Shown: positions 18,860-63,044 of the stretch, in pieces
How the letters are laid out: each line of letters opens with the position of its first letter
Position numbering within the stretch: position 1 is the stretch's first letter
Assembly (NCBI GenBank): GCA_029881035.1
Contig: JAOUNI010000002.1
Span: forward strand, 64,565 to 128,564
Source of the DNA: Gammaproteobacteria bacterium
GTDB taxonomy: Bacteria > Pseudomonadota > Gammaproteobacteria > SZUA-229
Direction of reading: 5' to 3'
DNA length: 64,000 nucleotides
Position numbers and translations under genes: made by a program
Notes under the pieces: model-generated
What the model was told of the DNA's origin: nothing
The model's input: only the letters and a program-made list of their open reading frames with translations
Database searches by the model: none

Positions 18860-19474
<615 letters not shown>

Positions 19475-19499
19475 ACTAAAATATTCGACAATTAACCAC

Positions 19500-19527
19500 G
19501 CGTTCTTCTATTTGTTCAGAAGAACGC
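19500..19527. terminator. Bidirectional terminator hairpin GCGTTCTTC-N10-GAAGAACGC
   Basis: Perfect 9-bp stem between the convergent diaA and 19571-20434 genes. Confidence 0.6.
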
Positions 19528-19570
19528 ATGAATTAACTTTTCAAAATTTAACTCTTACCATTGCTGATAA

Positions 19571-20434
19571 TTACCAATATGGATAACCATAGTATCCGTT
19601 GGGCGCATTATTTGGGGCATAATAAGGGTTATTATTATAACCATATGGATTTACGGGCTGTGGTTGACCATTATAATTCCAACCCGAATTTTGCGCAGCC
19701 ATATTAACCGGCGCCTGATTGGGCTGCTGATAGCTATTAACTGGATAATTCATGTAACCAGGCATCTCACGCGCGCCGTTATACGGCATGTTAGCTGAAC
19801 GTTTAGCCCACTCCTGCTGATACCTCGCCTGCTCTTGCTGCATCAGTGTCTGTTGATCCTTAACCCATTGTGGTGGCTCTGATGCATTTCGATTTGCCTG
19901 ATAATTACCCGCATTCTGCTTTTCAAGCTCGGAGCGACGCTTATCCATTTGCGCCTGCCTGTCTTTGATCCATTGTGGCGGCTCGGATGAAGCTCTATTC
20001 GAGAGATAGTTACCCGCATTTAGTTTTTCAAATTCTACGCGACGCTTATCCATCTCTGCACGTTGCTGAGTCACCCACTCAGGTTGCTGAACACGATTTC
20101 CGTTAGCCATCGATGGCACCTGAAAATAATTTAAATTGGCATCAGCAACAATAGCAGATGAGGAATTATTGTCTGATGAGAGCAAAGAGTTTAATTGCTG
20201 TGGCATAACTATGTAAGCCACTATAGTAGCAGTAGGTATGGCCACAATTAATGCCATTAAGGCAGATGAGATTATATGTGATTCTGTTTTAGGGGTAGCT
20301 TCACTTACCGTAGATTTCTTATCTGATGACATCATTCCCATCGCCTTTAATTTATTCGCTATCTTCTTTGTTTTTTTCTTATCAATACTGTCACCATCTT
20401 CACTATTGGCCGTACTATCATTTTTAATAACCAT
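19571..20434 (-). CDS. Membrane-anchored repeat protein with an Asn/Tyr/Pro/Gln-rich prion-like C-terminus (last gene of the low-complexity cluster)
   Basis: 287 aa. One TM helix; three ~35-aa repeats (E)PPQW[VI]KD[RQ]QAQMDKRR.E.EK.NAGNY; C-terminal ~60 aa almost only N/Y/P/G/Q, ending YPYW. Confidence 0.6.
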   Translation of the reverse strand: MVIKNDSTANSEDGDSIDKKKTKKIANKLKAMGMMSSDKKSTVSEATPKTESHIISSALMALIVAIPTATIVAYIVMPQQLNSLLSSDNNSSSAIVADANLNYFQVPSMANGNRVQQPEWVTQQRAEMDKRRVEFEKLNAGNYLSNRASSEPPQWIKDRQAQMDKRRSELEKQNAGNYQANRNASEPPQWVKDQQTLMQQEQARYQQEWAKRSANMPYNGAREMPGYMNYPVNSYQQPNQAPVNMAAQNSGWNYNGQPQPVNPYGYNNNPYYAPNNAPNGYYGYPYW

Positions 20435-20467
20435 TAGTCTACTCCTCTAATCTTTCAATTTAATAAT

Positions 20468-21031
20468 TTACCAGGGTGTGTACGAATTCATAAATTGCAT
20501 AGGTCTTGATACGCTGTTGTTGATCACCGCTATTTCATGACTCATTTGACCCGCTGATACACTCATACTTCTTACATAGCCATTCATTTCCTGTATCGTC
20601 AATGTTTGCCTTTCCATATTGATAACAACAGCCTGCATAGTACCGTTAATTGAATTCATTTCAGTAGCTATAGCGCCTACATCCTTGGTCAGACTATTAA
20701 TAAGAAAGAATCCATATATCGCTAAGACAATGAAAGCAAACATAGCAGGAAAAACAATCATTTCCCATCGACGTGTACTAGCGGTAAATGTTTTAGTTAA
20801 CTCATTCAGACTTTCACTTAAGACGTGTTCAACACTATCTTTTATCGTGTCATCATAATAACCAAACATAGATAACTTCTTGTCACAACGATTCGGCTCA
20901 TTAGGACATGTATCTGGGTCACCAGTACAGCCCTCTATTCCTGGCTCGCACTCGATTGATTCTATAATTACGTCTCTTACGTTCTTTTTCTTATGAGGGT
21001 GCGCATTTTTGTCGGACATTGTATTTACCAC
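20468..21031 (-). CDS. Hypothetical single-TM protein with a Cys-rich N-terminal region
   Basis: 187 aa. ECEPGIEGCTGDPDTCPNEPNRCDKK then a central TM helix; C-terminus ends ...YTPW. Confidence 0.55.
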   Translation of the reverse strand: MVNTMSDKNAHPHKKKNVRDVIIESIECEPGIEGCTGDPDTCPNEPNRCDKKLSMFGYYDDTIKDSVEHVLSESLNELTKTFTASTRRWEMIVFPAMFAFIVLAIYGFFLINSLTKDVGAIATEMNSINGTMQAVVINMERQTLTIQEMNGYVRSMSVSAGQMSHEIAVINNSVSRPMQFMNSYTPW

Positions 21032-21051
21032 TTATTTAATTCAAAAAAATA

Positions 21052-21903
21052 TTACCCGGAAATCTTATTTCTGAGTTTTTCCGCACTGACCACATCAAGA
21101 CCCTGAATAACCCTCAACAAGTAATTGACCTGTTGCCCCATCTGTTCATTCTTATCTCGCTCCAATAAACGAACTGCCGCCTCATAATAAGCCTCAGCCG
21201 CCTGTTTCCATTTACCCTGAGCGTAATAAACATTACCCAATTCGCCATAAATATCCGGGTCACTATCATCAATATTAAGAAGATCTAGATAGCCTCTCTC
21301 AGAATCGTGTATCTCGCCTTTCCAGAATAACTGCCTTGCCATAAACAAACCTTGTTTTGCGTCAATAGATACGCTATCAGTTGCAGAAACACTGGTATTT
21401 TCCCTACTACTAATAACTAAATTATCAGTTTTTTGTTCCACCGAAACCAATACCTTATCCTTTTCATCATTGTTCGATGCAGGCTCAATAGCAAAAGATG
21501 CCTTATCTGCATCAAACAGCATATCAACTTTTTTGTTTATTGAGCTCACAGTTTCAGCCAACACCTCCATAATGGCCGCTGCCCCCTCGGTTTTCTCATC
21601 TGTAGCGATATCTTTACCTGACTCCATAGCCACTGACACTGTTTCTACATTGTCATCCTTTACGGCAACATTATCCACGATCGATTCGCATTCCTTTTGA
21701 ACAGCTACTTCTCCTTGAATATTCGCAGCCAAATATGATGGAATTGAAATTTTGAATTTTTCTTCCGCGTAAGAAAGTGCCGTATTAATATGCTGATTGA
21801 CGTTTGCATGAAATACTATTGAACGGAAATAAATTAATGCTGAAAATGCTAGCAGCAATACAACAAGTTTTATTGGTTTTATTAAAAATCTTAAGACCTT
21901 CAT
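21052..21903 (-). CDS. TPR-like repeat membrane protein
   Basis: 283 aa. N-terminal TM anchor, acidic/Ser-rich middle, C-terminal TPR-like helices (YGELGNVYYAQGKWKQAAEAYYEAAVRLL). Confidence 0.65.
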   Translation of the reverse strand: MKVLRFLIKPIKLVVLLLAFSALIYFRSIVFHANVNQHINTALSYAEEKFKISIPSYLAANIQGEVAVQKECESIVDNVAVKDDNVETVSVAMESGKDIATDEKTEGAAAIMEVLAETVSSINKKVDMLFDADKASFAIEPASNNDEKDKVLVSVEQKTDNLVISSRENTSVSATDSVSIDAKQGLFMARQLFWKGEIHDSERGYLDLLNIDDSDPDIYGELGNVYYAQGKWKQAAEAYYEAAVRLLERDKNEQMGQQVNYLLRVIQGLDVVSAEKLRNKISG

Positions 21904-21919
21904 TTTTTATGCCTCATAT

Positions 21920-22561
21920 CTAATTTATTAGATCTGGATATAGCGCATGCGCCAATTGATCAAATTCTTCTGCACTTTTACTCTTCCCTGAAAGCTCAAA
22001 TATTGAAAGCCCTTCACTTAAGGTACGCCTAAAACTCGTTCTCTGACATAGCCTGTATGGAATTACCCTGAATTTTTCCAGCATTTTTAGTGCCTGTTCT
22101 GCCTCATCGGATTCCCTCACGGCATGATGCGTATCAGCCCTGTTTATAAATGCAACTAATTCTGGATGATTATTATCACCACATGCATCATTAATTATTT
22201 TCAAAAATCTCTGCGTCGCCCATACATCAGGCTGGCTCGGTTGCACTGGAACAATAACTCGGTGAGCAATGCTTATAGCTGCTTTCATCGCATCCATATT
22301 AGCCGCACCCACATCTACTAAAACATGACACGAATGATTATTTAATGTCCCACAAATATCATTACTATCTGCAACACTTACTAACAGCTCAGGCTCAATA
22401 TCATCTTCTCTCCTAACCAATGCAACATCATGCAATGTTTGTTGAGGGTCAAGATCATAGGCAACCACGACTTCACCTTTCATCTTCAGCCAGATAGCAA
22501 GATTGAATGCAACCGTACTTTTGCCTGATCCACCTTTAAGATTTGCGATGACTGTTATCAT
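21920..22561 (-). CDS. Orphan ParA/MinD-like P-loop ATPase. The track ORF extends to 22597; the likely start is MITVIANLKGG
   Basis: Deviant Walker A IANLKGGSGKST with the signature Lys; ParA-type Walker A' and Walker B; no parB or parS nearby. Confidence 0.8.
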   Translation of the reverse strand: MITVIANLKGGSGKSTVAFNLAIWLKMKGEVVVAYDLDPQQTLHDVALVRREDDIEPELLVSVADSNDICGTLNNHSCHVLVDVGAANMDAMKAAISIAHRVIVPVQPSQPDVWATQRFLKIINDACGDNNHPELVAFINRADTHHAVRESDEAEQALKMLEKFRVIPYRLCQRTSFRRTLSEGLSIFELSGKSKSAEEFDQLAHALYPDLIN

Positions 22562-22568
22562 TCTGTAC

Positions 22569-23333
22569 TCACCTGTTAGTGTATTCAGGGCGAACATCTG
22601 GCTGAGATACTATTTTTGCGTAGTCTCCGGGGACACTGAATAAATCATCTGGCTGTTTGGAGACCACGATATTTTTTAGCTCTCTAATATAACCACCTGG
22701 CAACTCTTCTTTTATGGCGATTTTCAGGCCCGGGTCATACCATTGGTAAGATACTGCACTTTTTCCATCTGGACGACTCAACGTTCGCTGCCATTTTTCG
22801 GTATTTCGTCCATTTATTTTTTCCTTTTGTAACATCTTTAACTCTGCCACCGAACCATCTGGAAAAAATTCTCTTATCGCAAGTTTTCTTTTTATATCCA
22901 TCCAGTGAAGAGTCCGTAATTTTCTTCCTCTATTTTCAGAGATGATTTGCCATTTTTCTGTATCGTGTCCGTCGATGTTTTCATTACCCAATTTCTCACA
23001 TATTGCGTTTGATATTTGATCACATGGCGTATCATTATTTTTCTTATTATTTTGCCTATCAAACACTTTCTCCACATATGATTTCAATGGGTTGTTAATA
23101 AGGACTGCCCTACCCTCTTGCGGATAAACAATTTCGACAATCACTTGTTCGTTAACTACAGACTCATTTCTAACCGCTTTTTCACTCACAAATAATTTGG
23201 TCTGTCTCATGTTCTGTTGTGGCGCACTAATCACTGCATCTGCTGAAAACTCTACAATTTTTGGCTCAGCATATGTATTGCCGGTTATAAACACCGAACA
23301 AGCTATAACCAGGATTTTTCTCAGAGCACCCAT
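22569..23333 (-). CDS. Hypothetical secreted protein
   Basis: 254 aa; signal peptide MGALRKILVIACSVFITGNTYA; overlaps or abuts the ParA-like gene. Confidence 0.6.
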   Translation of the reverse strand: MGALRKILVIACSVFITGNTYAEPKIVEFSADAVISAPQQNMRQTKLFVSEKAVRNESVVNEQVIVEIVYPQEGRAVLINNPLKSYVEKVFDRQNNKKNNDTPCDQISNAICEKLGNENIDGHDTEKWQIISENRGRKLRTLHWMDIKRKLAIREFFPDGSVAELKMLQKEKINGRNTEKWQRTLSRPDGKSAVSYQWYDPGLKIAIKEELPGGYIRELKNIVVSKQPDDLFSVPGDYAKIVSQPDVRPEYTNR

Positions 23334-23412
23334 AACACGCTACCATTTATTTTGCATATTGCTAACTTCAACCGAGTTTGTCACATCCCTGTGAACACTC
23401 ATACTTCACTGA

Positions 23413-23865
23413 CTACTGAGCAGGTGCTGGTGCAGGTGCTGCTTGAGGAGCATAACCAGGACCATAATAACCAGGACCGGGGCCGTAACCATAACCAGGA
23501 CCAGGGCCATAACCGTAGCCATTGTTATAACCGTTATAGCCGTTATAGTTATTTCGACCGTAGTAGTCACCAGCACCATTACCATAACCACTACCACGAG
23601 CATTTGAGTTGCCACTCATGTTGAAGCCAAAATTGCCATCGCCAAGGAAATCGCCCATACCATTGCCATTACCCCAACCATTGCCATTATTACCCCAGTT
23701 GTTATTGTTGTTGCCCCAACCATTGTTATTATTATTCCAGGGACCCCACCAGGCATTTGCTGTCATAGGCGTAGCCAGAGCAGCTGCTACCGCTGCAACA
23801 CACAGTACTTTTTTCACGTTTTTCATAATATTTCTCCCCTTCTTCTGAAGGCTATTAAAAGACAC
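23413..23865 (-). CDS. Secreted extremely low-complexity Gly/Asn/Trp/Tyr-rich protein
   Basis: 150 aa. Signal peptide ..ATPMTANA, then WWGPWNNNNNGWGNNNNNWGNNGNGWGNGNG...NYNGYNGYNNGYGYGPGPGYGYGPGPGYYGPGYAPQAAPAPAPAQ. It has the same orientation as its neighbours, and the alternative-frame ORFs lack signal peptides. Confidence 0.6.
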   Translation of the reverse strand: MSFNSLQKKGRNIMKNVKKVLCVAAVAAALATPMTANAWWGPWNNNNNGWGNNNNNWGNNGNGWGNGNGMGDFLGDGNFGFNMSGNSNARGSGYGNGAGDYYGRNNYNGYNGYNNGYGYGPGPGYGYGPGPGYYGPGYAPQAAPAPAPAQ

Positions 23866-23958
23866 AATTTAAATATTAAACTGTTTGCTCTCTGGCCAAA
23901 TCTAACTGAATCATGTCGCAGAGAGCACCGCACGTGACCAGTTTTAAAAATGTTTGTA

Positions 23959-24582
23959 TTACCAGAACCTTGGCCTGGATAATAAACCTGTGTACGGATA
24001 AGAACCGCCAGGATAACCGCCATAACCTAGTCCGTTCGAAATTAAACCCGGATAGATTGATGGTGTAATTAATGGATTGTGATGCATCGTTCCTGGATAA
24101 CCATAAGCACCGCCTAAAGGTAGCAGTGATCTTCCGTAAGCAGTGAATGGATCAGCCGATACAAAATTATTACGATATGAGGAATCATTCTGATGACTCC
24201 ATTGTTTAAATCGCTGATCATGAAGCTTCATATTGTTTTTATTGCTCGGTTTCCGATCTGGAATATTTCCCCATGGCCGTTGACCAGAAAACGTTTTTTT
24301 AGAGTAAGTAGATTTAACTGCTTTCCATGGATTTTTGGTCGTTACCGGTGAATAACGAACTTTATTATCTTCATTAAAAGAGCGACCACTTCCCCATTGC
24401 TTTTCCCCGACACTATTCCGAAAATCAGGGTCAACAGAAGGTGGAGAAAAGTCTGAAAAACTTGATTTTGATACAAAATCTTCCTTCCACTCTGTTGCGC
24501 TCACTGGCTGAAGATAAAGACCACTATTAACAAGCAGCAATATAAGAATTTTATTCAAATAACTATTGTCAGCTATATTCAT
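23959..24582 (-). CDS. Secreted protein with a Gly/Tyr/Pro-rich C-terminal domain
   Basis: 207 aa. Signal peptide; C-terminus ...LPLGGAYGYPGTMHHNPLITPSIYPGLISNGLGYGGYPGGSYPYTGLLSRPRFW. Confidence 0.55.
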   Translation of the reverse strand: MNIADNSYLNKILILLLVNSGLYLQPVSATEWKEDFVSKSSFSDFSPPSVDPDFRNSVGEKQWGSGRSFNEDNKVRYSPVTTKNPWKAVKSTYSKKTFSGQRPWGNIPDRKPSNKNNMKLHDQRFKQWSHQNDSSYRNNFVSADPFTAYGRSLLPLGGAYGYPGTMHHNPLITPSIYPGLISNGLGYGGYPGGSYPYTGLLSRPRFW

Positions 24583-24657
24583 AACATCATCTCTGTATCT
24601 TATATTTCAATTCATTTAACAAAAAACTAACCTGCATCATATTTTTCAACAATGGAA

Positions 24658-25146
24658 CTAGTACCGTTGCCCCTGATACATTGGTTGCTGATAATATTCT
24701 GGCGGCACAGCACCAGGACCGTAAACCGGGCCACGTGCAGAAGGGAAAGGTTGCTGAAATCTATTATCTTGAACGCCGGGAGCACGACCTGAATAAGTAT
24801 TTGGCGCTGGTTGCATTTGATTATAATTCCATTGTGGCTGTTGATTTGGCCGATTCTGAGATTGCATATTTGATTGTTTCATTCGTTGCTCCATCTGAGC
24901 CTGGCGTTGTTTCACCCAATCTGGCACCTCACTGTTTAACTGGTTGGATTGTGCAGAGGGATGCCCATAATTTTTTCTCATATGCGAACAATTTTGAACG
25001 CTCTGATCTGAAGTATATTGATCAGTATCATCAACTGATTTATATGGGCCAGGAGGTGGCATCACATTCTCATAGCTTCCAGCAAAAACTGAATGATTTA
25101 TTGCCATTGTCATAGCAGTCATTAATACTAATATTGTTGTTTTCAT
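24658..25146 (-). CDS. Secreted Gln/Asn/Pro-rich low-complexity protein sharing the PxWVKQRQAQME motif with 19571-20434
   Basis: 162 aa. Signal peptide ..SVFAG; PDWVKQRQAQMEQRMKQSNMQSQNRPNQQPQWNYNQMQPAPN...; 24 bp downstream of the RND gene stop. Confidence 0.55.
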   Translation of the reverse strand: MKTTILVLMTAMTMAINHSVFAGSYENVMPPPGPYKSVDDTDQYTSDQSVQNCSHMRKNYGHPSAQSNQLNSEVPDWVKQRQAQMEQRMKQSNMQSQNRPNQQPQWNYNQMQPAPNTYSGRAPGVQDNRFQQPFPSARGPVYGPGAVPPEYYQQPMYQGQRY

Positions 25147-25170
25147 GCGGTTGCCTTATATAATTTTCTT

Positions 25171-28100
25171 TTATTCTGTTTCCAATCCAGGATTAAGACG
25201 GATTCCTCGTCTTTTCTTCTTCGTTGCAATCTTTTTTTCACTTACGATAACTGTATTTTTTTTATCTTCTGATGACTCACTGATGGATGCGATTTTTTTC
25301 CCAGGTGCTGACTTTTTTTTCACCGCAGTCGCAGCTTTCTCAGCTGCTACTTTCTTCTGTGCTGCAGTCTTCTTTTTCACCACCGGCCTCGATACTTTGG
25401 CGTCACCTACTTTTTCCTGAACCACCTCATTGTTGACAGCCTGATTCTGGTCACTAGTTTGAGTTTGTGAGGAACTTTGATTCACATCTCCATCATTGCC
25501 TGAAACTACCGATGAAGAAACTGGGGCGGGCGTGGGATTACCTCCTGATGAGCCTGAGCCGCCACCATCTGGTGAACTCGGACCGGAACCACCTGAGTCA
25601 CTACTGAATCGTGCAAGCAAACTCTGTATACCCATGCGAACCATCATGACAATCATGCGGCCAATATAGAAAGCCCATGTCACCGCATTAATTAACTGCA
25701 TCCAGATTCTTAACCATAAAGGTAACTGATAAGCCGGAGCTTCAGGCTCACTTACTTTAACTTTAATAGCGGGATTTTCCATGCCTGCCAGCAAATAGAA
25801 CTGCTTGCTGACACTTATACAACCCAACGGAATCACTACCAGAGTTAACACCGTGGCGACACCCGCACCATATAACAGACTGACGGCCATGCCCTTGAAA
25901 ATCAAATCATCAAGAATCATATAGGCACCTGCCATCAACGTTAGCGCCGTGATCAGGATAGGACGCATACGTGCTTTACCTGCCAGCACCACTGCCTCCT
26001 TAATATCCACGCCATTGGCCACCTCATGCTTGACGAACTCAACCAGCAAAATGGAATTTCGCACCACGATCCCTGCCAGCGCGATAAAACCAATCATAGA
26101 TGTGGCAGTAAATTCCGCATTCGCAAACCAGTGCCCAGGAATAATCCCAATGAGCGTCAACGGGATAGGTGCCATAATCAAACCACCGAGAGTAAAATTC
26201 TTGAACTCCCAGACGATCAGTCCATAAATCAGCAACATGGCCGCCATAAATGCGCCGCCCATATCCCTGAATGTTTCATAGGTCACGGTCCATTCACCGC
26301 CCCACTCAAAACCGCTTTCGAAACTATCATCCGGCGGTCCTAACAAACCCATTGGCATGCCAGTCATGGTGACACCGTCAGGTGTCACATAATTTTCGAG
26401 AATATCTTCCACATCAAACATGCCATAAATTGGCGCACCAAGACGTCCTTGCATTTCACCCGTAACGTATTCAACATCACGCAAATCTTTGTGATAAACA
26501 AGCTGGTCCTGTTCTTCTTTGATAAAACGACCTAGCTCAGAAAGCGGCACAGTTTCACCATTAACACCAGTAATTGGCAAATTACCCAGGCGGTTAATTT
26601 GTGAACGCACTCCCATAGGCGCCTGAATCACAATATAAGTTGGTTCCAGTACTACCCCTTTTTTCACATCACCTAGTTTGTAGCCACCCATAACCATAGC
26701 CAGGTTACGATTTATCGCGTCAACAGAAATACCGCGTCGTACTGCTTTTTCAGTATCCACCTCAAAACGCCAGTAATCGTGCGGCGTCGCCATATAATTA
26801 TCAACGTCAACAATACCTTCAGCTTCCCTGAAAATTTCAGTCATATCGCGAGCAACCTGACGACGCGTCTCTGCATCAGGTCCATATATTTCAGCAACCA
26901 CTGTCTGTAATACAGGCGGGCCTGGCGGCATTTCAATAACCTGAATATCAGCGCCTAAACTGTCAGCCATATCTTTTATCAACTCACGTGCATTAACCGC
27001 AATTTCATGACTCGCGCGTTCTCGATCTTCCTTATCAAGCAGCATGACCTGGATGTCAGCTTGCCAAGGCTCCTGCCTTAAATAGTAATGGCGCACCATA
27101 CCATTGAAATTAAACGGAGAGGCCGTGCCTACATAGGTTTGAATTGATGTCACTTCTGGTAATTCACGAAGTTTTGCCGCGAGCTGCGTAGTCACATTAG
27201 CCGTAACTGGCATTGCTGTTCCGTCAGGCATATTGATCACAATATTAAACTCAGGCTTGTTATCAAAAGGCAACATCTTTACAGTAACTGCCTGGGTGTA
27301 AAACAATGAACAAGCAATAAATGTTGCCGCAATTAATAAAAACAGAAACATCAAACCCAATGCCCTGTTATTACATAATGGATTCATGCAAGGGTCATAA
27401 AATTTACCAATCCATGCTGTAATTTTTTCCTCTCGCCTTTCTGCCTTTTCCAGTGCGCCTAACTGTGGACGAACCCGCATTGCAAACCAGGGCACAAAAA
27501 TAAATGCTGCAAATAATGAAAGCATCATAGCGGCCGAACCTAGCACCGGGATGGGTCTCATGTAAGGCCCCATCAAACCACTAACAAAACCCATTGCCAA
27601 TAAAGCAGCGACAATAGCCAATGTTGCCAGGATGGTTGGATTGCCAACCTCTCGCACCGCATCAATAGCAATATTGGTGGTTGTCTTTCCTGCCTTTAAC
27701 CATCGCCTGAAAATATTTTCGACTACCACGGTGGCATCATCGACCAGAATACCGATGGTAAAGACCATGGCAAATAAACTCACACGGTCAATGGTGTAAT
27801 CAAGAAACCACGCCGACCACACCGTCATTAAAATGACCAGTGGTATGATAAAAATGACCACCGATGCAGCACGAAGTCCCAGGCCAATTAAACATAAAAT
27901 ACTGACAGCGACCGTGGCTTCAAATAATGCTATCAGTAACTCATTAACCTTATCGTTGGCTGTTTTCCCGTAATTACGCGTAATGCTAACCTGAACATTA
28001 TCAGGGATAAGATGACCTTTTAAGGATTCAAGTTTTTCCAGCAACTGATTTGCAACTGACACACCATTAGAACCAATTTTCTTTGCCACTGCGATAGTGA

Positions 28101-29052
28101 CTGCTGGTGAATCTATAGTCTCGGGAGTTGAACCATCATGTGCCAGCCCAGTTGAAAAAGCCACCATCTTGCTAGTTTCTTCAGGCGCCTGATAAACCCA
28201 GGCAATATCACGCACATAAACCGGTGAACCTTTTCTGATCGCCACAACAAGATTAGAAACATCTTGTGCGCTTTTTAAGAATGCGCCTGTATAAACGTGA
28301 AAGCTGTCATTATCTCCTTCCACATTACCCGCAGATTGTTCAGCGTTCGCTGTTTTAATTGTGTTGGCAACATCTTCTATGCTAATCCCAAAACCACTCA
28401 AACGTTCTGGAGAAACCTCAACACGTATTTGTTCTGCTCGTCCACCAACAACAAAACCTTTACCTGAATTTGGAACTTCCTCAAGGCGCTGTAGCACATC
28501 CAGTCCCAGGGTACGTAGTACAGAATCATCGATCCCCTGATCTTCTGACCATAAAGTGATAGTCACTACTGGCACATCATCAGTACCTACAGGTTTAACC
28601 AGAGGCATTGAAACGCCTGGAGGAATCTTATCCAGATTCGACTGCAATTTATCATGCACTTTGACAATCGATTCGCCAAAGTCTTCGCCCACTCTGAAAC
28701 GCGCTGTCACCATACCCTGACCACGCGCGCTGGCAGAGTAAACGTGACGCATACCAGGTATTTCACTGATCATGCGTTCTAGCGGATTAACCGCAAGACT
28801 GGCCACCTGTTCTGCCGAAGCACCGGGATACTGAAAAAAGATATCCACCATGGGCACGGAAATCTGTGGATCTTCCTGACGCGGAGTAAACAGCAGCCCC
28901 AGTATGCCAATACCCAAAAAGGCCAGCATTAATAGAGGGGTAACCGGTGAATTTATAAACTGACGGGCAATACGCCCGGCGATACCAAGATTAGCTTCGT
29001 CTAGCTGCAGATCATCATCCTGCAGGTTCTTTTCGTCTATTTCATTTGACAT
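25171..29052 (-). CDS. RND (AcrB/HAE1-like) efflux permease with a ~230-aa C-terminal low-complexity Gly/Ser then Lys/Ala-rich histone-H1-like tail
   Basis: 1293 aa. 12-TM RND architecture with two large periplasmic loops (core ~1060 aa). The tail ...SGGSGPSSPDGGGSGSSGG...KKKTAAQKKVAAEKAATAVKKKSAPGKK...KKKRRG has no counterpart in canonical AcrB/MexB. Confidence 0.9.
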   Translation of the reverse strand: MSNEIDEKNLQDDDLQLDEANLGIAGRIARQFINSPVTPLLMLAFLGIGILGLLFTPRQEDPQISVPMVDIFFQYPGASAEQVASLAVNPLERMISEIPGMRHVYSASARGQGMVTARFRVGEDFGESIVKVHDKLQSNLDKIPPGVSMPLVKPVGTDDVPVVTITLWSEDQGIDDSVLRTLGLDVLQRLEEVPNSGKGFVVGGRAEQIRVEVSPERLSGFGISIEDVANTIKTANAEQSAGNVEGDNDSFHVYTGAFLKSAQDVSNLVVAIRKGSPVYVRDIAWVYQAPEETSKMVAFSTGLAHDGSTPETIDSPAVTIAVAKKIGSNGVSVANQLLEKLESLKGHLIPDNVQVSITRNYGKTANDKVNELLIALFEATVAVSILCLIGLGLRAASVVIFIIPLVILMTVWSAWFLDYTIDRVSLFAMVFTIGILVDDATVVVENIFRRWLKAGKTTTNIAIDAVREVGNPTILATLAIVAALLAMGFVSGLMGPYMRPIPVLGSAAMMLSLFAAFIFVPWFAMRVRPQLGALEKAERREEKITAWIGKFYDPCMNPLCNNRALGLMFLFLLIAATFIACSLFYTQAVTVKMLPFDNKPEFNIVINMPDGTAMPVTANVTTQLAAKLRELPEVTSIQTYVGTASPFNFNGMVRHYYLRQEPWQADIQVMLLDKEDRERASHEIAVNARELIKDMADSLGADIQVIEMPPGPPVLQTVVAEIYGPDAETRRQVARDMTEIFREAEGIVDVDNYMATPHDYWRFEVDTEKAVRRGISVDAINRNLAMVMGGYKLGDVKKGVVLEPTYIVIQAPMGVRSQINRLGNLPITGVNGETVPLSELGRFIKEEQDQLVYHKDLRDVEYVTGEMQGRLGAPIYGMFDVEDILENYVTPDGVTMTGMPMGLLGPPDDSFESGFEWGGEWTVTYETFRDMGGAFMAAMLLIYGLIVWEFKNFTLGGLIMAPIPLTLIGIIPGHWFANAEFTATSMIGFIALAGIVVRNSILLVEFVKHEVANGVDIKEAVVLAGKARMRPILITALTLMAGAYMILDDLIFKGMAVSLLYGAGVATVLTLVVIPLGCISVSKQFYLLAGMENPAIKVKVSEPEAPAYQLPLWLRIWMQLINAVTWAFYIGRMIVMMVRMGIQSLLARFSSDSGGSGPSSPDGGGSGSSGGNPTPAPVSSSVVSGNDGDVNQSSSQTQTSDQNQAVNNEVVQEKVGDAKVSRPVVKKKTAAQKKVAAEKAATAVKKKSAPGKKIASISESSEDKKNTVIVSEKKIATKKKRRGIRLNPGLETE

Positions 29053-29098
29053 TTTTATTCAGCCGGATTTAAAAAAATATTCTATGTGTAACGGATTA

Positions 29099-30415
29099 TT
29101 ATTTAGAGAAATCAGGCGTCCAGCCTGATCGAATACCCGGCGATGGTGAAGCAAAAATTTGCTCCCCAGGGCTAATACCAGATAATACAGCGACATTTTC
29201 ATTATCAACTTCATCACCCAGTCGTACTAGTCGCATCTCGGCACGACCCTCGTGATTAAGTACGAATACAGCTGGTAAACTGCCACGCCGAACAATGGCG
29301 GAGGAAGGAATAATTGGCATATCGGCAATAGGTGTGTTCACATCAGGGATCATTACTTCAGCATACATACCTGGACCACCCGGCACGCCCTCAGGTAAAT
29401 CAAATTTCACAACCACAGTGTGTCTCTGTGAATCCGCGACAGGAAAAATTTGCGCTACGCGCACATCAATGTAAGTATCACCCACGTCCAATTTTGCAGG
29501 CACGACCATATCTTCACTCAGTGCCGACACCAGTCTGGCAGGCACATCAACCTTGAGCTGCAGAAAACGGATATCCGCAAATTGCAATAAAGCCTGGCCA
29601 GGCTGAACCGTGTCGCCGACTTCTGCAACTTTCTTCACAATAACGCCTTCAAATGGCGAAATAGCCCGTGTATCACGTAAGCGCGCATCTATTTCATCAA
29701 TACGCGAACGTGCACCGTGAATTCCACTTTGCGCCTGATCGACGTGCGTACCCTGAGAGTACAGATCCACATCACGGACCACCCATGGATTCAAGCCGTT
29801 ATATGATGGATAACCGCCTGAGGATGGGCCGCCACCAAAACCCATAAATTTTTCAAACATGGAAGGGAAGTACCCCATGCTTGGTGCAGTTTGCTGCTGT
29901 TGCTGCTGCAAAGCCTGTGGCGCCCAGAACTCCCTGGAATATTGAGCTCGTGCATCCTGTAATGTTGATGACCTGCCATAAAGGTCAGCCATTGCCTGTT
30001 GCCGCTGCGCAAGCACATCGTCATCATCAATAGCGACCAGAATCTGGCCTTCGTCAAACCATTCACCTTCACTACCTGCAATAAACTCAACCCGTCCTGG
30101 AGTCTGAGCAGTTAAGGTCACTTCTCTATAAGGCTTAACAGTACCGCCCAATACTACATGTGCACCTGTTTTTGCATTGGTGACAGTGATAATGGATCCA
30201 TGCTGCTTACCACCACGCTGTACAGTCGGGTAGAAAACTTTGCCTGACGTATGCGCCGACTGATTACTGTTATCTGTCCGATAATAGGCTTTTTCGGCCT
30301 GCAACTGAAAAGATATTATTAATGATACTGCGAGCAATAATCGGCTTAATAAATAAGCACTATCTGCCGGCCGCGTAGTAAACCACTGGTTGTTACGCAT
30401 TACTGCTTTCCCCAC
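29099..30415 (-). CDS. RND efflux membrane fusion (periplasmic adaptor) protein with a Gln6/Gly/Tyr/Ser/Pro-rich insertion
   Basis: 438 aa. N-terminal anchor; biotinyl/lipoyl-like and beta-barrel MFP domains; ~45-aa insertion QQQQQQTAPSMGYFPSMFEKFMGFGGGPSSGGYPSYNGLNPW. Confidence 0.85.
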   Translation of the reverse strand: MGKAVMRNNQWFTTRPADSAYLLSRLLLAVSLIISFQLQAEKAYYRTDNSNQSAHTSGKVFYPTVQRGGKQHGSIITVTNAKTGAHVVLGGTVKPYREVTLTAQTPGRVEFIAGSEGEWFDEGQILVAIDDDDVLAQRQQAMADLYGRSSTLQDARAQYSREFWAPQALQQQQQQTAPSMGYFPSMFEKFMGFGGGPSSGGYPSYNGLNPWVVRDVDLYSQGTHVDQAQSGIHGARSRIDEIDARLRDTRAISPFEGVIVKKVAEVGDTVQPGQALLQFADIRFLQLKVDVPARLVSALSEDMVVPAKLDVGDTYIDVRVAQIFPVADSQRHTVVVKFDLPEGVPGGPGMYAEVMIPDVNTPIADMPIIPSSAIVRRGSLPAVFVLNHEGRAEMRLVRLGDEVDNENVAVLSGISPGEQIFASPSPGIRSGWTPDFSK

Positions 30416-30449
30416 AAAACTTAAAGAGATTGAAATCTATAGACGGTAT

Positions 30450-30836
30450 CTAGATTTTTGCCATGACAGCAAAACTTTTGATGAAGGGTCCGGCCATACG
30501 AGGATCTTTAATCATAGCGCCATAATCTCCAACTAAAAATTTCAGCTTACCTGTGGTATAGGCCATACCTAACCCCATCATCCCCGGTGGACTCTTCACC
30601 CATTTACCCCAATGCTCATTGGATGCACGTAAGTCCCAGTTCAACGTCTCACCGTTATACTCACCAGCTGAAACCACATGACCGTTTTCAACAGTAATAA
30701 CACCTACAGGCTTTTCTTCACCTGTGAAGCCATAAGCAATTACAGAGTTAAAATTTATCTGTTTAAGTGCATCTGCCAATCCAGGTTCAGCATTCCAGGC
30801 ATTCTGAAACTTCTTCATCCAGTCTTCTTTAAACAT
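30450..30836 (-). CDS. SCP2 (sterol carrier protein 2)-like lipid-binding domain protein; first gene of the RND operon
   Basis: 128 aa, WMKKFQNAWNAEPGLADALK...GKLKF...AMAKI; SCP-2 sterol-transfer fold signature; 34 bp upstream of the MFP gene. Confidence 0.7.
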   Translation of the reverse strand: MFKEDWMKKFQNAWNAEPGLADALKQINFNSVIAYGFTGEEKPVGVITVENGHVVSAGEYNGETLNWDLRASNEHWGKWVKSPPGMMGLGMAYTTGKLKFLVGDYGAMIKDPRMAGPFIKSFAVMAKI

Positions 30837-30879
30837 TTTTTATTTCTCCAAAATAATTTAACGACCCATATCTGACATA

Positions 30880-30895
30880 GCAAGAGTTATGCCAA
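30880..30895 (-). promoter_or_regulatory. Sigma-54 (-24/-12) promoter TGGCAT-N5-TTGC on the - strand, upstream of the SCP2-MFP-RND operon
   Basis: The reverse complement of GCAAGAGTTATGCCAA is TTGGCATAACTCTTGC, matching the TGGCAC-N5-TTGCW consensus with GG/GC correctly spaced. It sits about 45 bp upstream of the SCP2 start, with a divergent sigma-54 activator gene. Confidence 0.55.
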
Positions 30896-30923
30896 CTCCC
30901 AACTCATTGATTTACATCAAACA

Positions 30924-31055
30924 ATTGTTGCTCATTGTTCCATCATGCAACAATACTTTTATTGACTAATGTCACTAAGTGGATGAATACATGTAAAAAC
31001 CAAGGATATATTGGGTGAAACATTGTTGCGCAACACCGCAATAATTGCAACACTG
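30924..31055. promoter_or_regulatory. Putative upstream activator sequences: inverted repeat ATTGTTGC-N15-GCAACAAT (30924-30954), perfect palindrome TGTTGCGCAACA (31024-31035) and a TTGCAACA half-site (31045-31052)
   Basis: Repeated TTGTTGC/GCAACAA dyads 30-170 bp upstream of the sigma-54 promoter, inside the divergent intergenic region with the EBP gene. Confidence 0.4.
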
Positions 31056-31094
31056 TGATTAGATAATAATTTTTCCCCTACTAAGGAACGTCTA

Positions 31095-63041: not shown

Positions 63042-63044
63042 TCC

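Follow-up and report, generated by a model that had tools for sequence, protein, structure and literature searches.

Organization, conservation and regulation of the gene cluster

The window, by which we mean the whole 64 kb stretch of DNA that was analyzed, contains a predicted operon of 11 co-directional ORFs on the - strand (19571-30836), separated by intergenic gaps of 7-93 bp. The coordinates and gap lengths agree with those of a first-pass annotation of this DNA, and its count of twelve genes is reduced here to 11 on that strand. The end of the cluster is set apart from a convergent diaA-like gene by a hairpin (19496..19531, - strand), recognized previously, whose 15-bp stem is the longest and strongest found in 19300-31300. 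The hairpin has a poor T-run, and we infer its function as a terminator.

A comparison of loci revealed the same gene order in >20 species-level genomes with unrelated flanking genes. The recurring order, which comprises SCP2, adaptor, RND, three low-complexity genes, DUF4412, ParA, TPR-like and TM187 genes, is preserved across 6-11 genes in several bacterial families, and a universal core of adaptor, tailed RND, secreted repetitive protein, DUF4412, ParA and TM187 extends from marine MAGs to Chromatiaceae. Because this order is kept next to different flanks, the genes constitute one co-conserved unit and a real module; the low-complexity genes belong to it and are not scattered elsewhere. That an ordinary multidrug pump merely lies beside unrelated genes, with ParA as the remnant of a mobile element, is scarcely credible. 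Each of the families is common on its own, and the G+C content is slightly lower at 20-24 kb (0.38-0.41 vs 0.38-0.50 across the window), but such a chance assembly is already contradicted by the synteny and by the conservation of features specific to the cluster, namely the RND tail motif, the adaptor tip and the C-terminus of TM187. No description of such a cluster was found in the searchable literature, consistent with the first-pass annotation, which had recognized no described system of this composition.

A gene for a sigma-54 enhancer-binding protein (EBP; 31095..32444, + strand) diverges from the head of the cluster, as had been noted. Its product combines a PAS domain (PAS_8, 4.9e-5), an AAA+ domain (Sigma54_activat, 3.7e-68; AAA_lid_14) in whose translation GAFTGA is read, and an HTH_8 domain, with no receiver domain; orthologs 61-88% identical are divergent from the cluster at 10 loci. 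Within the 258-bp divergent intergenic region, a predicted sigma-54 promoter, TGGCATaactcTTGCT (30879..30894, - strand; -24 GG, -12 GC), is correctly oriented ~43 nt upstream of the first ATG. It corresponds to the TGGCAT-N5-TTGC element proposed earlier, and no second match to TGGCAYN5TTGCW occurs in the 64 kb window, where 0.34 matches are expected by chance. All 10 loci that retain the divergent EBP have a TGGCA-N6-TTGC-type match ahead of the SCP gene (TGGCA-N6-ATGC in locus L020), with spacer sequences that vary among them; the 6 loci that carry SCP but no divergent EBP at that position have none.

Immediately upstream of the -24 element, the sequence reads AATCAATGAGTTG (30900..30912, - strand), a candidate IHF site assigned from the known consensus (WATCAAnnnnTTR), and a similar AAATCAATGnnTTA/G block stands ahead of the promoter in L007, L009, L019, L020 and L021. 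A sequence search located a candidate upstream activator site at 31024..31052, a strand-neutral palindrome that opens with TGTTGCGCAACA and closes with GCAACA, which is the only exact TGTTGC-N17-GCAACA match in the window (0.30 by chance at ≤1 mismatch). L003, L007, L009, L018, L020 and L023 likewise carry palindromes of the TGTTGC/GCAACA type, ~195-250 nt ahead of the first gene, and a second inverted repeat, ATTGTTGC-N15-GCAACAAT, occupies 30954-30924 in the window. The co-occurrence of promoter, IHF-like site and palindromic upstream site with the EBP gene backs the putative sigma-54/EBP control of the operon that had been suggested before. The presence of rpoN in the window, also pointed out at that time, is uninformative because the gene is located within the usual lptB-rpoN-hpf-ptsN block.

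The RND pump, its adaptor and the predicted carriers

The first gene (30450..30836, - strand) encodes a cytoplasmic protein of 128 aa, for which Pfam and PDB sequence searches gave no match. A search of the AlphaFold2 model (pLDDT 95.5) using Foldseek revealed that it is most similar to the Thermus SCP2 2cx7 (TM 0.80, E 3e-6) and 1wfr, followed by UbiJ-SCP2 and eukaryotic SCP2; the previous SCP2 assignment thus stands at the level of the fold and finds no counterpart in sequence searches. The protein has 2484 homologs, ~70% identical across families and named 'SCP-2 sterol transfer family protein' at NCBI, and its gene is also found solitary, away from any RND pump. Judging from the model, it is a candidate carrier of a hydrophobic ligand. 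The same role, in the periplasm, is a candidate function for the DUF4412 protein (22569..23333, - strand; 254 aa), which is secreted, displays a LolA-superfamily fold and contains two invariant Cys. This globular protein had been listed as the fourth of the low-complexity secreted proteins. The two carriers would functionally flank the pump, one in the cytoplasm and one in the periplasm, and point to a small hydrophobic cargo.

The adaptor (MFP; 29099..30415, - strand; 438 aa) has an N-terminal anchor, scores 150.3 bits against NCBIfam RND_mfp (cut-off 94.9) and finds its top PDB match in the TriAB adaptor 6vej. In place of the hairpin tip stands a conserved Met/Phe-rich hydrophobic motif (WAPQ...SMGYFPSMFEKFMGFGG), with low-complexity sequence rich in Gln/Gly/Tyr/Ser/Pro around it. 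The motif GMG(Y)FPxMF(D/E)(K/Q)(F/M) is kept in 18/18 orthologs, Chromatiaceae included; the Gly/Tyr/Ser/Pro insertion reported for this protein is real and recurs across orthologs with varying length.

The adjacent gene (25171..29052, - strand) encodes an HAE1-type RND permease of 1293 aa, whose pump portion spans residues 29-1076 (Pfam ACR_tran, 1e-141) and whose top PDB matches are TriC 6vej (4.8e-62) and MexK. TM4 reads GILVDDATVVVEN and contains an AcrB-like DD pair. In contrast to TolC-type pumps, this RND has no outer-membrane partner gene nearby, as none is present in the cluster or among the window ORFs of at least 400 aa, and the hairpin tip of its adaptor is replaced by the hydrophobic motif. 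Heavy-metal efflux (Cu/Ag or Zn/Co/Cd) of the Cus/Czc type, in which TM187 and the adaptor tip would bind metal, is very improbable. The weak similarity of the adaptor to CzcB/CusB-type families and the Met-rich stretches of TM187 and the adaptor tip agree with this function, but the RND scores 392.7 bits against the HAE-type model vs 255.5 against CusA/CzcA, the DD pair of TM4 is AcrB-like, the best solved relatives are TriC and MexK, and a metal-sensing regulator, CusF and an outer-membrane factor are missing. Moreover, metal efflux leaves no place for SCP2/LolA carriers or ParA.

The permease continues into a C-terminal extension of ~215 aa, which consists of an extra hydrophobic helix of borderline hydropathy (residues ~1110-1145), a Ser/Gly/Pro linker, a Lys/Ala-rich stretch and the end motif KRRGIRL (residues 1281-1286; DNA 25195-25212, - strand), found across orthologs as KRRGI(R/K)L. 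The tail architecture together with RRGI(R/K)L is conserved in 20/21 orthologs. The earlier description of the tail as histone-like holds for its composition, and a Pfam HC2 match is on record for one ortholog, but the tail encoded in the window matches no Pfam family.

Repetitive proteins, ParA and bitopic membrane proteins

Four low-complexity proteins are encoded in the cluster, of which three (162, 207 and 150 aa) are secreted and one (287 aa) is membrane-anchored. The Gln/Pro/Asn-rich protein of 162 aa (24658..25146, - strand) carries a signal peptide, the N-terminal sequence MPPPGPYKS and one PDWVKQRQAQMEQRMKQ repeat, the copy number of which varies among orthologs (several in L007 and L013). 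The Ser/Gly/Pro/Tyr-rich protein of 207 aa (23959..24582, - strand) contains the conserved motifs NPWK and RPWGxxP and ends in a Trp that is present in 12/12 orthologs; neither protein belongs to a Pfam family. The protein of 287 aa (19571..20434, - strand) comprises a Lys-rich N-terminus, a TM segment (59-77), three PxWVKxxQAxM-type repeats and an Asn/Tyr/Pro/Gly-rich end (...YPYW), and its gene contains a 105-nt tandem repeat. The repeats are of the same type as in the 162-aa protein, and tblastn cross-matches link the two families. The 287-aa gene is accessory, being missing from L003 and L018-L021.

The third secreted protein (23413..23865, - strand; 150 aa, or 137 aa from the likely start at 23826) is Gly/Asn/Tyr/Trp-rich, and a 24-nt tandem repeat in its gene encodes GYGPGPGY. 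It scores 20.5 bits against Pfam PF17228 (SGP), under the cut-off of 26.7, which is exceeded by 3/10 orthologs (34.4, 27.8 and 27.8 bits). A phmmer search of 1.84 billion representatives returned 73 matches; when 65 of these were scanned together with the window protein, PF17228 was matched in 57 of the 66 sequences. Matches named 'sulfur globule protein CV1' or 'sulfur globule family protein' come from the Solemya velum symbiont, a Methylococcales MAG and Ca. Thiopontia; pairwise BLASTP comparison with named SGPs showed weak similarity (E 0.007 and 9e-6). On these sequence grounds the protein is assigned to the SGP (SgpA/CV1) family; low-complexity likeness can be convergent. Elsewhere, as in the Solemya symbiont, canonical sgp genes stand alone, and the Chromatiaceae clusters have no SGP-family gene. 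Even there, a secreted repetitive protein is always encoded between the RND and DUF4412 genes.

The first-pass annotation suggested that the cluster might export and assemble protein material of the envelope or of a structure outside the cell; on this reading, the system would be unrelated to sulfur, and RND and adaptor would help to deliver or organize the low-complexity proteins. The co-conserved unit is upheld, as are the four repetitive Gly/Tyr/Asn/Gln/Pro-rich protein genes in a predicted operon with the pump and an adaptor insert of similar composition, and the conserved C-terminal Trp motifs could be sorting tags. However, the proteins have ordinary Sec-type signal peptides or a membrane anchor, and the RND pump is therefore unlikely to be their exporter; to our knowledge, protein secretion by RND pumps has no precedent. 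The lack of an outer-membrane component, the SGP-family member and a taxonomic range of sulfur-globule formers likewise make an envelope apparatus distinctly unlikely. With one low-complexity protein in the SGP family, the notion of structural protein material is retained in part, and this material is more likely periplasmic, as a sulfur-globule coat, than extracellular.

The ParA gene (21920..22597, - strand; likely start 22561, giving 213 aa) lies directly downstream of DUF4412 in every locus with a contig extending that far. It encodes a small ParF-type ATPase with a deviant Walker A motif (KGGSGKST) and Pfam matches to CbiA, AAA_31 and MipZ; the score against NCBIfam ParA_partition is 134.5 bits, under the cut-off of 180, and the top PDB matches are ParF 4dzz and TP228 ParA 5u1g (E about 7e-8). 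This ParA has neither a ParB nor a membrane-targeting helix. In ParF and TP228 ParA, the partner reportedly stimulates the ATPase through a flexible peptide that bears an Arg.

Two bitopic membrane proteins complete the cluster. The first (21052..21903, - strand; 283 aa) presents a short basic N-terminus, a TM segment (6-31), an acidic linker and a C-terminal TPR-like repeat. Its earlier designation as a TPR protein applies to this one repeat (residues 205-246), for which all TPR models score under their cut-offs; orthologs are 27-52% identical and absent from Chromatiaceae clusters. The second, TM187 (20468..21031, - strand; 187 aa), has a cytoplasmic basic N-terminus with 4 Cys, a TM segment (92-110) and a Met-rich helical C-terminal domain, with a weak match to DUF948. 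It ends in the invariant sequence SRPMxFMNxFxPW in 24/24 orthologs, Chromatiaceae included.

Distribution of the cluster and a possible role in sulfur storage

Every named carrier belongs to a sulfur-storing or thiotrophic lineage. These comprise purple sulfur bacteria (Thiobaca, Thiorhodococcus, Thiocystis, Chromatium okenii and weissei, Imhoffiella, Thiocapsa, Marichromatium, Thiodictyon, Thermochromatium and Allochromatium warmingii), the endosymbiont of the tubeworm Galathealinum, and Thiotrichaceae or Chromatiales MAGs. The family is small, with 212 and 231 matches in 5.8 billion proteins. A. vinosum, the model globule former, was not found among the best 120 DUF4412 matches, and globule formation thus probably does not generally depend on the cluster. 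The 64 kb window plus its extensions contain no dsr, sox or sqr genes; we infer the sulfur metabolism of the source organism from its relatives. The link to sulfur bacteria, together with the LolA-like protein and the conserved motif of the RND tail, had escaped the first-pass annotation.

We propose, with roughly even credence and from sequence-based evidence, that the operon encodes a periplasmic sulfur-globule apparatus of sulfur-storing Gammaproteobacteria. The secreted Gly/Tyr/Asn/Gln/Pro-rich proteins would form or modify the globule coat, and the pump and adaptor would carry a hydrophobic cargo between the inner membrane and the globule instead of expelling drugs through TolC. Candidate cargoes are zero-valent sulfur (S8 or polysulfane) and a hydrophobic carrier or lipid of the globule. 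Against this proposal weigh the exporter function of RND pumps of this type, for which sulfur is a hypothetical substrate, the solitary sgp and SCP2-fold genes found elsewhere, the low SGP score of the window protein, the lack of dsr, sox and sqr genes around the cluster and the position of A. vinosum outside the best 120 DUF4412 matches. The Met/Phe-rich tip of the adaptor hairpin, set in coat-like sequence, would dock on the globule, while the cargo would be ferried through the periplasm by the LolA-like protein and handled in the cytoplasm by the SCP2-fold protein.

A doubtful, if serious, alternative is the trafficking or efflux of a hydrophobic molecule such as a membrane lipid, a quinone, a hopanoid-like compound or toxic polysulfide dissolved in the membrane. 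Such a system would have no direct part in globules, and the SGP-like and other repetitive genes would be adjacent for regulatory reasons only. Its mechanism would resemble that of TolC-independent RND lipid transporters. SCP2 and LolA are classic lipid-carrier folds, the pump is of the HAE1 type, the SCP2-fold gene is widespread and also solitary, and the SGP-family gene is missing in the Chromatiaceae versions, all of which suits trafficking of this kind. Against it stand the invariable position of the secreted repetitive protein gene, the confinement to sulfur-storing lineages and the coat-like surroundings of the adaptor tip, and it leaves ParA and the conserved tail unexplained.

In the proposed sulfur-globule apparatus, ParA would space or segregate the complexes along the nucleoid, and the globules with them, through contact with the long basic tail of the pump and its invariant KRRGI(R/K)L peptide, and the Met-rich TM187 would be a further fixed partner. 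Should the extra helix that follows TM12 span the membrane, the tail would lie in the periplasm, out of reach of ParA. The cluster is a candidate for a hitherto undescribed machine that builds, feeds or spaces the sulfur stores of the cell.

Gene content, conservation and predicted control of the cluster

The minus strand from 30836 to 19571 carries eleven open reading frames spaced by 7–93 bp, and the independent gene calls of the ENA contig, which is identical to the window, agree with the same eleven-gene set. The first-pass annotation had counted twelve co-directional genes; the shared strand and the range of the gaps hold, and the number is corrected to eleven. In order, the genes encode a 128-aa protein, an adaptor (MFP, 438 aa), an RND permease (1293 aa), three proteins of 162, 207 and 150 aa, a DUF4412 protein (254 aa), a ParA-like ATPase, and proteins of 283, 187 and 287 aa. 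The 162-, 207- and 150-aa proteins have signal peptides and a strongly biased composition. The 283- and 187-aa proteins are single-pass membrane proteins, and the 287-aa protein is repetitive and membrane-anchored.

When one genome of each GTDB species was scanned with a pattern, 27 loci (handles beginning with L) were obtained, and these, together with loci added later, were searched by tblastn with twelve window proteins, the eleven of the cluster and the divergently encoded sigma-54 enhancer-binding protein (EBP). The full order, taken as the divergent EBP gene followed by the genes for the 128-aa protein, adaptor, RND permease, three low-complexity proteins, DUF4412 protein, ParA, 283-aa and 187-aa proteins, with or without the 287-aa protein, is kept in L003, L005, L007, L009, L011, L013, L018–L021, L023, L035/L036 and L040. 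Shorter contigs are all collinear with the cluster as far as their sequence extends. The window cluster is flanked by sspB and a diaA-like gene. In the endosymbiont of Galathealinum brachiosum, a GGDEF-domain gene precedes the cluster, and recN, NAD kinase and mutS genes follow it. An AI-2E transporter gene adjoins it in L035, whereas L040 has a TRAP transporter and genes of a two-component system there. Because the order is kept across genomes with differing flanks, the genes are co-conserved; the lack of co-conservation that would have spoken against the first-pass annotation is not seen, and the data contradict the alternative that they do not form a unit. The cluster is a conserved module.

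The EBP gene (31095–32444) is transcribed divergently from the cluster and encodes a PAS/sigma-54-AAA+/HTH_8 protein with an intact GAFTGA loop. A promoter-like site, TGGCATaactcTTGCT, at 30894–30879 is the sole match to TGGCAYN5TTGCW in the 64-kb window, where 0.34 matches are expected by chance, and the first ATG lies ~43 nt downstream. The sequence TGGCA-N6-TTGC precedes the first gene in all ten loci that retain the divergent EBP gene, with ATGC at −12 in L020; its distance from that gene is 57–66 nt in most of these loci, with values of 91 and 297 nt in two, and its spacer sequence varies between loci. It was not found in the loci that carry the SCP gene and have no EBP gene upstream (L005, L011, L030 and L035/36). 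The −24 GG and −12 GC elements are correctly spaced and kept in orthologs. An IHF-like WATCAAnnnnTTR block immediately before the promoter in several loci and TGTTGC/GCAACA palindromes ~140–190 nt further upstream match a classical enhancer-dependent architecture. Control of the cluster by sigma-54 and the EBP is well supported by this comparative sequence evidence, and the putative promoter and the activator recognized at first sight are confirmed in that the site is unique in the window and co-occurs with the EBP gene in orthologous loci. The presence of rpoN in the window, which had been cited to the same effect, adds nothing, as the gene belongs to its usual lptB-rpoN-hpf-ptsN-rapZ-npr-ptsP block. 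The cluster is closed by the putative terminator hairpin noticed earlier, with a 15-bp stem, at 19531–19496. Internal sigma-70-like and terminator-like sites of the cluster are no more numerous than in shuffled sequence, and an Rfam scan of the window gave no match.

The RND pump, its adaptor and the ParA-like ATPase

The RND permease is AcrB-like over residues 29–1076 (Pfam ACR_tran, 1e-141; profile positions 2–1015 of 1021) and displays the AcrB/AcrD/AcrF architecture in full length, with 12 transmembrane (TM) helices and two large periplasmic loops. TM4 contains, in place of the HME-type motif, an Asp-Asp pair within the sequence GILVDDATVVVEN, which we take to be the proton-relay pair from its correspondence to AcrB D407/D408. 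The closest solved relatives in the PDB are TriC (6vej, 4.8e-62) and MexK (3.5e-58). Metal efflux was considered and rejected because HAE-type models of NCBIfam score higher than CusA/CzcA (392.7 versus 255.5 bits), TM4 holds the Asp-Asp pair and TriC and MexK are the nearest structures; the data contradict it. The adaptor exceeds the cut-off of TIGR01730 RND_mfp (150.3 versus 94.9 bits) and those of Pfam HlyD_D23 and HlyD_3, and its best solved relative is the TriAB adaptor. The engine of the cluster is an HAE1 RND pump with its adaptor, which is a known kind.

A comparison with TriABC-OpmH and MexJK of P. aeruginosa reveals differences beside the shared full-length 12-TM permease, TM4 pair and adaptor gene just upstream. 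In contrast to these systems, the cluster lacks a gene for an outer-membrane factor: none of the TolC/OprM family was found in any orthologous cluster or among window ORFs of at least 400 aa. The hairpin tip of the adaptor is replaced by a hydrophobic Met/Phe-rich motif of the GMGYFPSMFEKFMG type (consensus WAPQ...GMG(Y)FPSMF(E/D)(K/Q)(F/M)), which is conserved in all orthologs, Chromatiaceae included, and is flanked by low-complexity sequence of variable length. An outer-membrane factor and a hairpin tip suited to dock on it, as in a tripartite pump, were not recognized in the clusters or among these ORFs; a factor might be encoded in another part of the genome. The permease is extended at its C-terminus by ~215 aa, in which an additional helix of moderate hydrophobicity is followed by a linker of Pro, Ser and Gly, a stretch rich in Lys and Ala, the peptide KRRGI(R/K)L and a short acidic end, and the tail with its invariant peptide occurs in 20 of 21 orthologs, those of Chromatiaceae among them. 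The obligatory neighbours also differ, being a ParA, a LolA-like protein, a Met-rich membrane protein and secreted repetitive proteins, and the predicted control is by sigma-54 instead of a TetR-type repressor. The tail had been called histone-like, a label that has family-level support in one ortholog only. This ortholog, in L040 (11686–15891, GCA_028281525.1), has 1401 aa and a precomputed Pfam match of its tail to HC2 (chlamydial histone H1-like).

The ParA-like protein has the deviant Walker A lysine (NLKGGSGKST) and exceeds the cut-offs of Pfam CbiA, AAA_31 and MipZ; with the NCBIfam equivalog ParA_partition it stays below the cut-off (134.5 versus 180 bits). Its closest solved relatives are ParF (4dzz, 6.5e-8) and TP228 ParA. 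No ParB- or ParG-like partner was found in the cluster, where the genes after ParA encode membrane proteins devoid of DNA-binding domains, and the region has no centromere-like repeat arrays besides coding repeats, so that the adjacent partner and centromere of ParABS-type partition are both missing. ATPases of the ParA/MinD group position a variety of cargoes, as in ParF-ParG (TP228), McdAB (carboxysomes), ParC/PpfA (chemoreceptor arrays) and BcsQ (cellulose secretion complex). The ATPase of the cluster resembles them in being small and ParF-like, in its deviant Walker A motif and in the position of its gene beside the presumed cargo, and the flexible basic peptide of the RND tail may, by analogy with such systems, act as a partner-borne activator of the ATPase. 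Unlike ParF-ParG, McdAB, ParC and BcsQ, the cluster has no ParB-, ParG- or McdB-like gene and no centromere, and its presumed cargo would be an inner-membrane pump coupled to a periplasmic structure. To our knowledge, no periplasmic inclusion has been reported to have a ParA system. A basic-tailed RND pump genetically locked to ParA would represent a new spatial organization of envelope machines.

The 283-aa protein had been described as a TPR protein. It contains a single repeat (residues 217–242), its best score is 22.9 bits against the 27.8 of TPR_1, and every TPR model remains below its cut-off, which makes the designation a weak one. No significant Pfam assignment was obtained for the Met-rich 187-aa membrane protein (TM187), the tail of the RND permease or the proteins of 162, 207 and 287 aa. 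The C-terminus of TM187, SRPMxFMNxFxPW, is found in 24 of 24 orthologs, Chromatiaceae included. Aromatic C-termini occur in TM187 (window 20468–20509), in the 207-aa protein (Trp, 23959–23964) and in the 287-aa protein (...YPYW, 19571–19576), and may constitute a recognition tag, for example for a periplasmic TPR-like domain or a PDZ protease. DegS-type PDZ domains recognize C-terminal aromatic residues. A DegS-type protease with a single PDZ domain is encoded on the plus strand at 36484–37620, 5 kb from the cluster, and this proximity is probably ordinary synteny.

Low-complexity proteins and putative hydrophobic-ligand carriers

Three low-complexity families occupy fixed positions in the cluster across loci. 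In the 162-aa type, the signal peptide is followed by MPPPGPY(K/R)S, and a PEWVKQRQAQMEQ-like repeat is present in one copy in the window and in several copies in L007 and L013; the 287-aa membrane-anchored protein contains three copies of this type of repeat. The 207-aa type is distinguished by NPWK and RPWGxxP motifs and by the terminal Trp, found in 12 of 12 orthologs. The 150-aa type comprises an AWWGPWNNN... start, a GMGDFLGDGxFxFNMSGN core and a Tyr/Gly-rich and AP-rich end.

The N-terminus of the 150-aa protein, MKNVKKVLCVAAVAAALATPMTANA, is followed by WWGP... after cleavage of the Sec signal, leaving a mature protein of ~112 aa, and Gly (23%), Asn (20%) and Tyr (9%) are prominent in its composition. 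It displays the hallmark of sulfur globule proteins (SGPs), a Sec signal followed by a repetitive Gly/Tyr-rich mature protein of ~10–15 kDa. With Pfam PF17228, whose gathering threshold is 26.7 bits, the window copy reaches 20.5 bits, and three of the ten orthologs at the same position pass the threshold (34.4, 27.8 and 27.8 bits). An exhaustive phmmer search of 1.84 billion representatives gave 73 matches. The window protein and 65 of these matches were scanned, and 57 of the 66 sequences fit PF17228 at E ≤0.001, the best at 8e-18. Names among the matches include ‘sulfur globule protein CV1’ and ‘sulfur globule family protein’ (Solemya velum symbiont, a Methylococcales MAG and Candidatus Thiopontia). 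Pairwise, composition-corrected BLASTP against named SGPs yields weak alignments (E 0.007 and 9e-6) that are collinear from the signal peptide to the C-terminus. The 150-aa protein thus appears, as judged from its sequence, to be a relative of SGPs of the SgpA/CV1 type. It has in common with SgpA and SgpB (CV1 and CV2; PF17228) the Sec signal, the Gly/Tyr-rich repetitive make-up and a relation at the profile level, whereas canonical sgp genes are solitary and monocistronic (PMC10386293) and the SGP-like gene of the cluster lies inside an 11-gene operon. In the Solemya velum gill symbiont (JRAA01000002.1; L037, L038), two identical solitary PF17228 genes are situated 260 kb apart, with no RND pump or ParA gene nearby.

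The first-pass annotation had suggested that the cluster could be an export and assembly apparatus for envelope or extracellular protein. The genes indeed form one unit with an SGP-like protein inside; protein export as its function is weakened because the signal peptides of the low-complexity proteins are ordinary.

The 128-aa protein is predicted to adopt the SCP2 fold. Its model (pLDDT 95.5) superimposes with TM scores of 0.80 to 2cx7 (Thermus) and 0.75 to 1wfr, and further fold matches are UbiJ-SCP2 and human, yeast and insect SCP2 proteins. Even with E values as high as 10 allowed, Pfam, PF02036 (SCP2) included, gave no match for the window protein or 12 orthologs, and no SCP2 protein emerged when PDB sequences were searched with a profile; the identity assigned earlier is thus supported by the predicted fold and not at the sequence level. 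The protein has 2484 homologs, ~70% identical across families, and is far more widespread and more conserved than the rest of the cluster. It also occurs in solitary form, for example as TVNIR_2884 of Thioalkalivibrio nitratireducens, and its own function is apparently under strong constraint. Solitary genes, at 10001–10396 in both L034 (T. nitratireducens, CP003989.2) and L039, have no RND pump nearby and are ~70% identical in distant sulfur oxidizers; the Thioalkalivibrio gene adjoins a DUF302 gene and a cysteine-desulfurase-like Aminotran_5 gene.

The DUF4412 protein exceeds the cut-off of its model and has a LolA-type open beta-barrel fold. Only 212 relatives were found in a search of 5.8 billion proteins. 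Distant paralogues (33–36% identity) are located outside any RND/ParA cluster in L025 (3216–3923), L028 (10001–10735) and L029 (10001–10657), and an EBP-like gene lies ~3 kb downstream in L025 and L028.

The combination of a beta-rich carrier on the outer side, an RND-superfamily protein and a cytoplasmic SCP2 fold may be likened, as an analogy only, to eukaryotic NPC2-NPC1 with cytosolic SCP2, to bacterial LolA-LolCDE and to hopanoid transporters of the HpnN type. The proteins of the cluster have no sequence relationship to NPC1, NPC2 or HpnN, and its pump is, in contrast to these lipid-handling systems, AcrB-like HAE1 with an adaptor. The main alternative to a role at sulfur globules is that the cluster is a lipid or hydrophobe trafficking system only co-regulated with coat genes; we regard this alternative as rather improbable.

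Distribution of the module and its possible role at sulfur globules

All named carriers of the module belong to sulfur-storing or sulfur-oxidizing lineages. They include the endosymbiont of Galathealinum brachiosum, MAGs of Thiotrichaceae, Granulosicoccaceae and Chromatiales, and the purple sulfur bacteria Thiobaca, Thiorhodococcus, Thiocystis, Chromatium okenii and C. weissei, Imhoffiella, Thiocapsa, Marichromatium, Thiodictyon, Thermochromatium and Allochromatium warmingii. Chromatiaceae have a smaller cluster, which consists of the adaptor, the tailed RND permease, one secreted repetitive protein, the DUF4412 protein, ParA and the Met-rich membrane protein, and this set defines the universal core. 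The secreted protein of Chromatiaceae belongs to a different family, with the motif YPGYRFRGDP...YRFRPL. It was considered as a homolog of the 207- or 162-aa protein and rejected as unrelated or too divergent (hhalign probability ≤0.2%). Because it has no detectable relation to the families of the marine clade, the structural genes represent the variable part of the cluster. No sulfur-oxidation genes were found in or near the window; the rest of the window is housekeeping, and extension at the two ends brought to light only DUF1015, cas1-cas2 and a CRISPR array.

In Allochromatium vinosum, the product of sgpD is the most abundant globule protein, the sgp genes form separate transcription units, and mCherry fusions are an established means of tagging SgpD (Kümpel, Grein and Dahl, PMC10386293). 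The sgpD gene is reported to adjoin a hydrophobe/amphiphile exporter and a regulator, and it is through this one sentence of the paper that the exporter may be linked to the cluster pump; a ParA, LolA-like or SCP2 gene is not mentioned there (PMC10386293). Among relatives of the DUF4412 protein from Thiobaca, the best 120 include A. warmingii and not A. vinosum, which, by this comparison, seems to lack the DUF4412-ParA core. This absence from the best 120 implies that the cluster is probably accessory, not essential, for globule formation.

We put the chances that the cluster is a dedicated sulfur-globule apparatus at about even. This reading fits best because the module is restricted to sulfur-storing lineages and contains an SGP-like gene, because its hydrophobe-type pump has no outer-membrane partner in the cluster and a hydrophobic adaptor tip amid coat-like sequence, and because folds of hydrophobic-ligand carriers are found on both sides of the membrane. 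The repetitive proteins would make or modify the globule coat, and the pump, adaptor and LolA-like protein would move a hydrophobic cargo, possibly zero-valent sulfur or a carrier or lipid, between the membrane and the globule. ParA is given a tentative part in such an apparatus on three grounds only, namely the strict linkage of its gene, the invariant basic peptide of the tail and the analogy to ParF-ParG and further ParA-cargo pairs. Should the additional helix behind TM12 place the RND tail in the periplasm, the ParA part would fail.

A more specific version of the sulfur-globule apparatus, which we consider a long shot and which would make the cluster a new type of machine that services an organelle, is a ParA-positioned machine of the inner membrane and periplasm that loads or unloads the hydrophobic zero-valent sulfur of protein-coated periplasmic globules. 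Its periplasmic leg would consist of the LolA-like protein together with the RND pump and adaptor, with the hydrophobic tip of the adaptor plugged into the Sgp-type coat, and its cytoplasmic leg of the extremely conserved SCP2-fold protein. The machine would be a functional bacterial analogue of NPC2, NPC1 and SCP2. If true, it would provide the missing sulfur route between globule, membrane and cytoplasm, and the first ParA ATPase to organize a periplasmic inclusion via the cytoplasmic tail of a membrane transporter.

Of the components of sulfur globules, only the coat proteins SgpA to SgpD are known. How globules are nucleated, coated, filled and distributed, and how stored sulfur returns from the periplasm to the cytoplasmic rDsr pathway, are questions on which the cluster may bear. 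A ‘vehicle perthiol molecule’, as yet unidentified, is still assumed in the literature to carry stored sulfur into the cytoplasm (PMC10892978). The cluster offers testable candidates, namely a TolC-free pump, hydrophobic-ligand carriers on both sides of the membrane, new coat-like proteins and a positioning ATPase, and its core is present in cultured purple sulfur bacteria open to genetics (for example Thiocapsa, Thiocystis, Marichromatium and A. warmingii). The searchable literature contains no description of the cluster, no mention of DUF4412, nothing that connects sulfur globules to efflux, RND pumps, ParA or sigma-54, and no link of SCP-2 with sulfur, in agreement with the initial statement that no described system of this composition was recognized. 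Undescribed features are the conserved RND tail, the change in the adaptor tip, the lack of an outer-membrane partner and the obligatory association with ParA, LolA-like, SCP2 and coat proteins.

Further loci were observed in the window. A 302-aa ORF on the plus strand (5656–6564) has no Pfam family at E ≤1e-5 and is overlapped by a 181-aa ORF on the opposite strand. A type II CRISPR-Cas locus occupies the window end (59976–63977), with cas9 at 59976–63041 (HNH_4, RuvC_III, Cas9_a) and cas1 at 63045–63977; no tracrRNA or Rfam match was found in the window. Just past the window, the matching ENA contig (L042, 10973–12432) continues with cas2, followed by an array in which 16 or more repeats recur with a period of 66 nt. 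A delta-class carbonic-anhydrase-like protein (Pfam CA_like, 2.7e-73) is encoded on the plus strand at 872–1756, where it adjoins genes for a dienelactone hydrolase and a hybrid histidine kinase.
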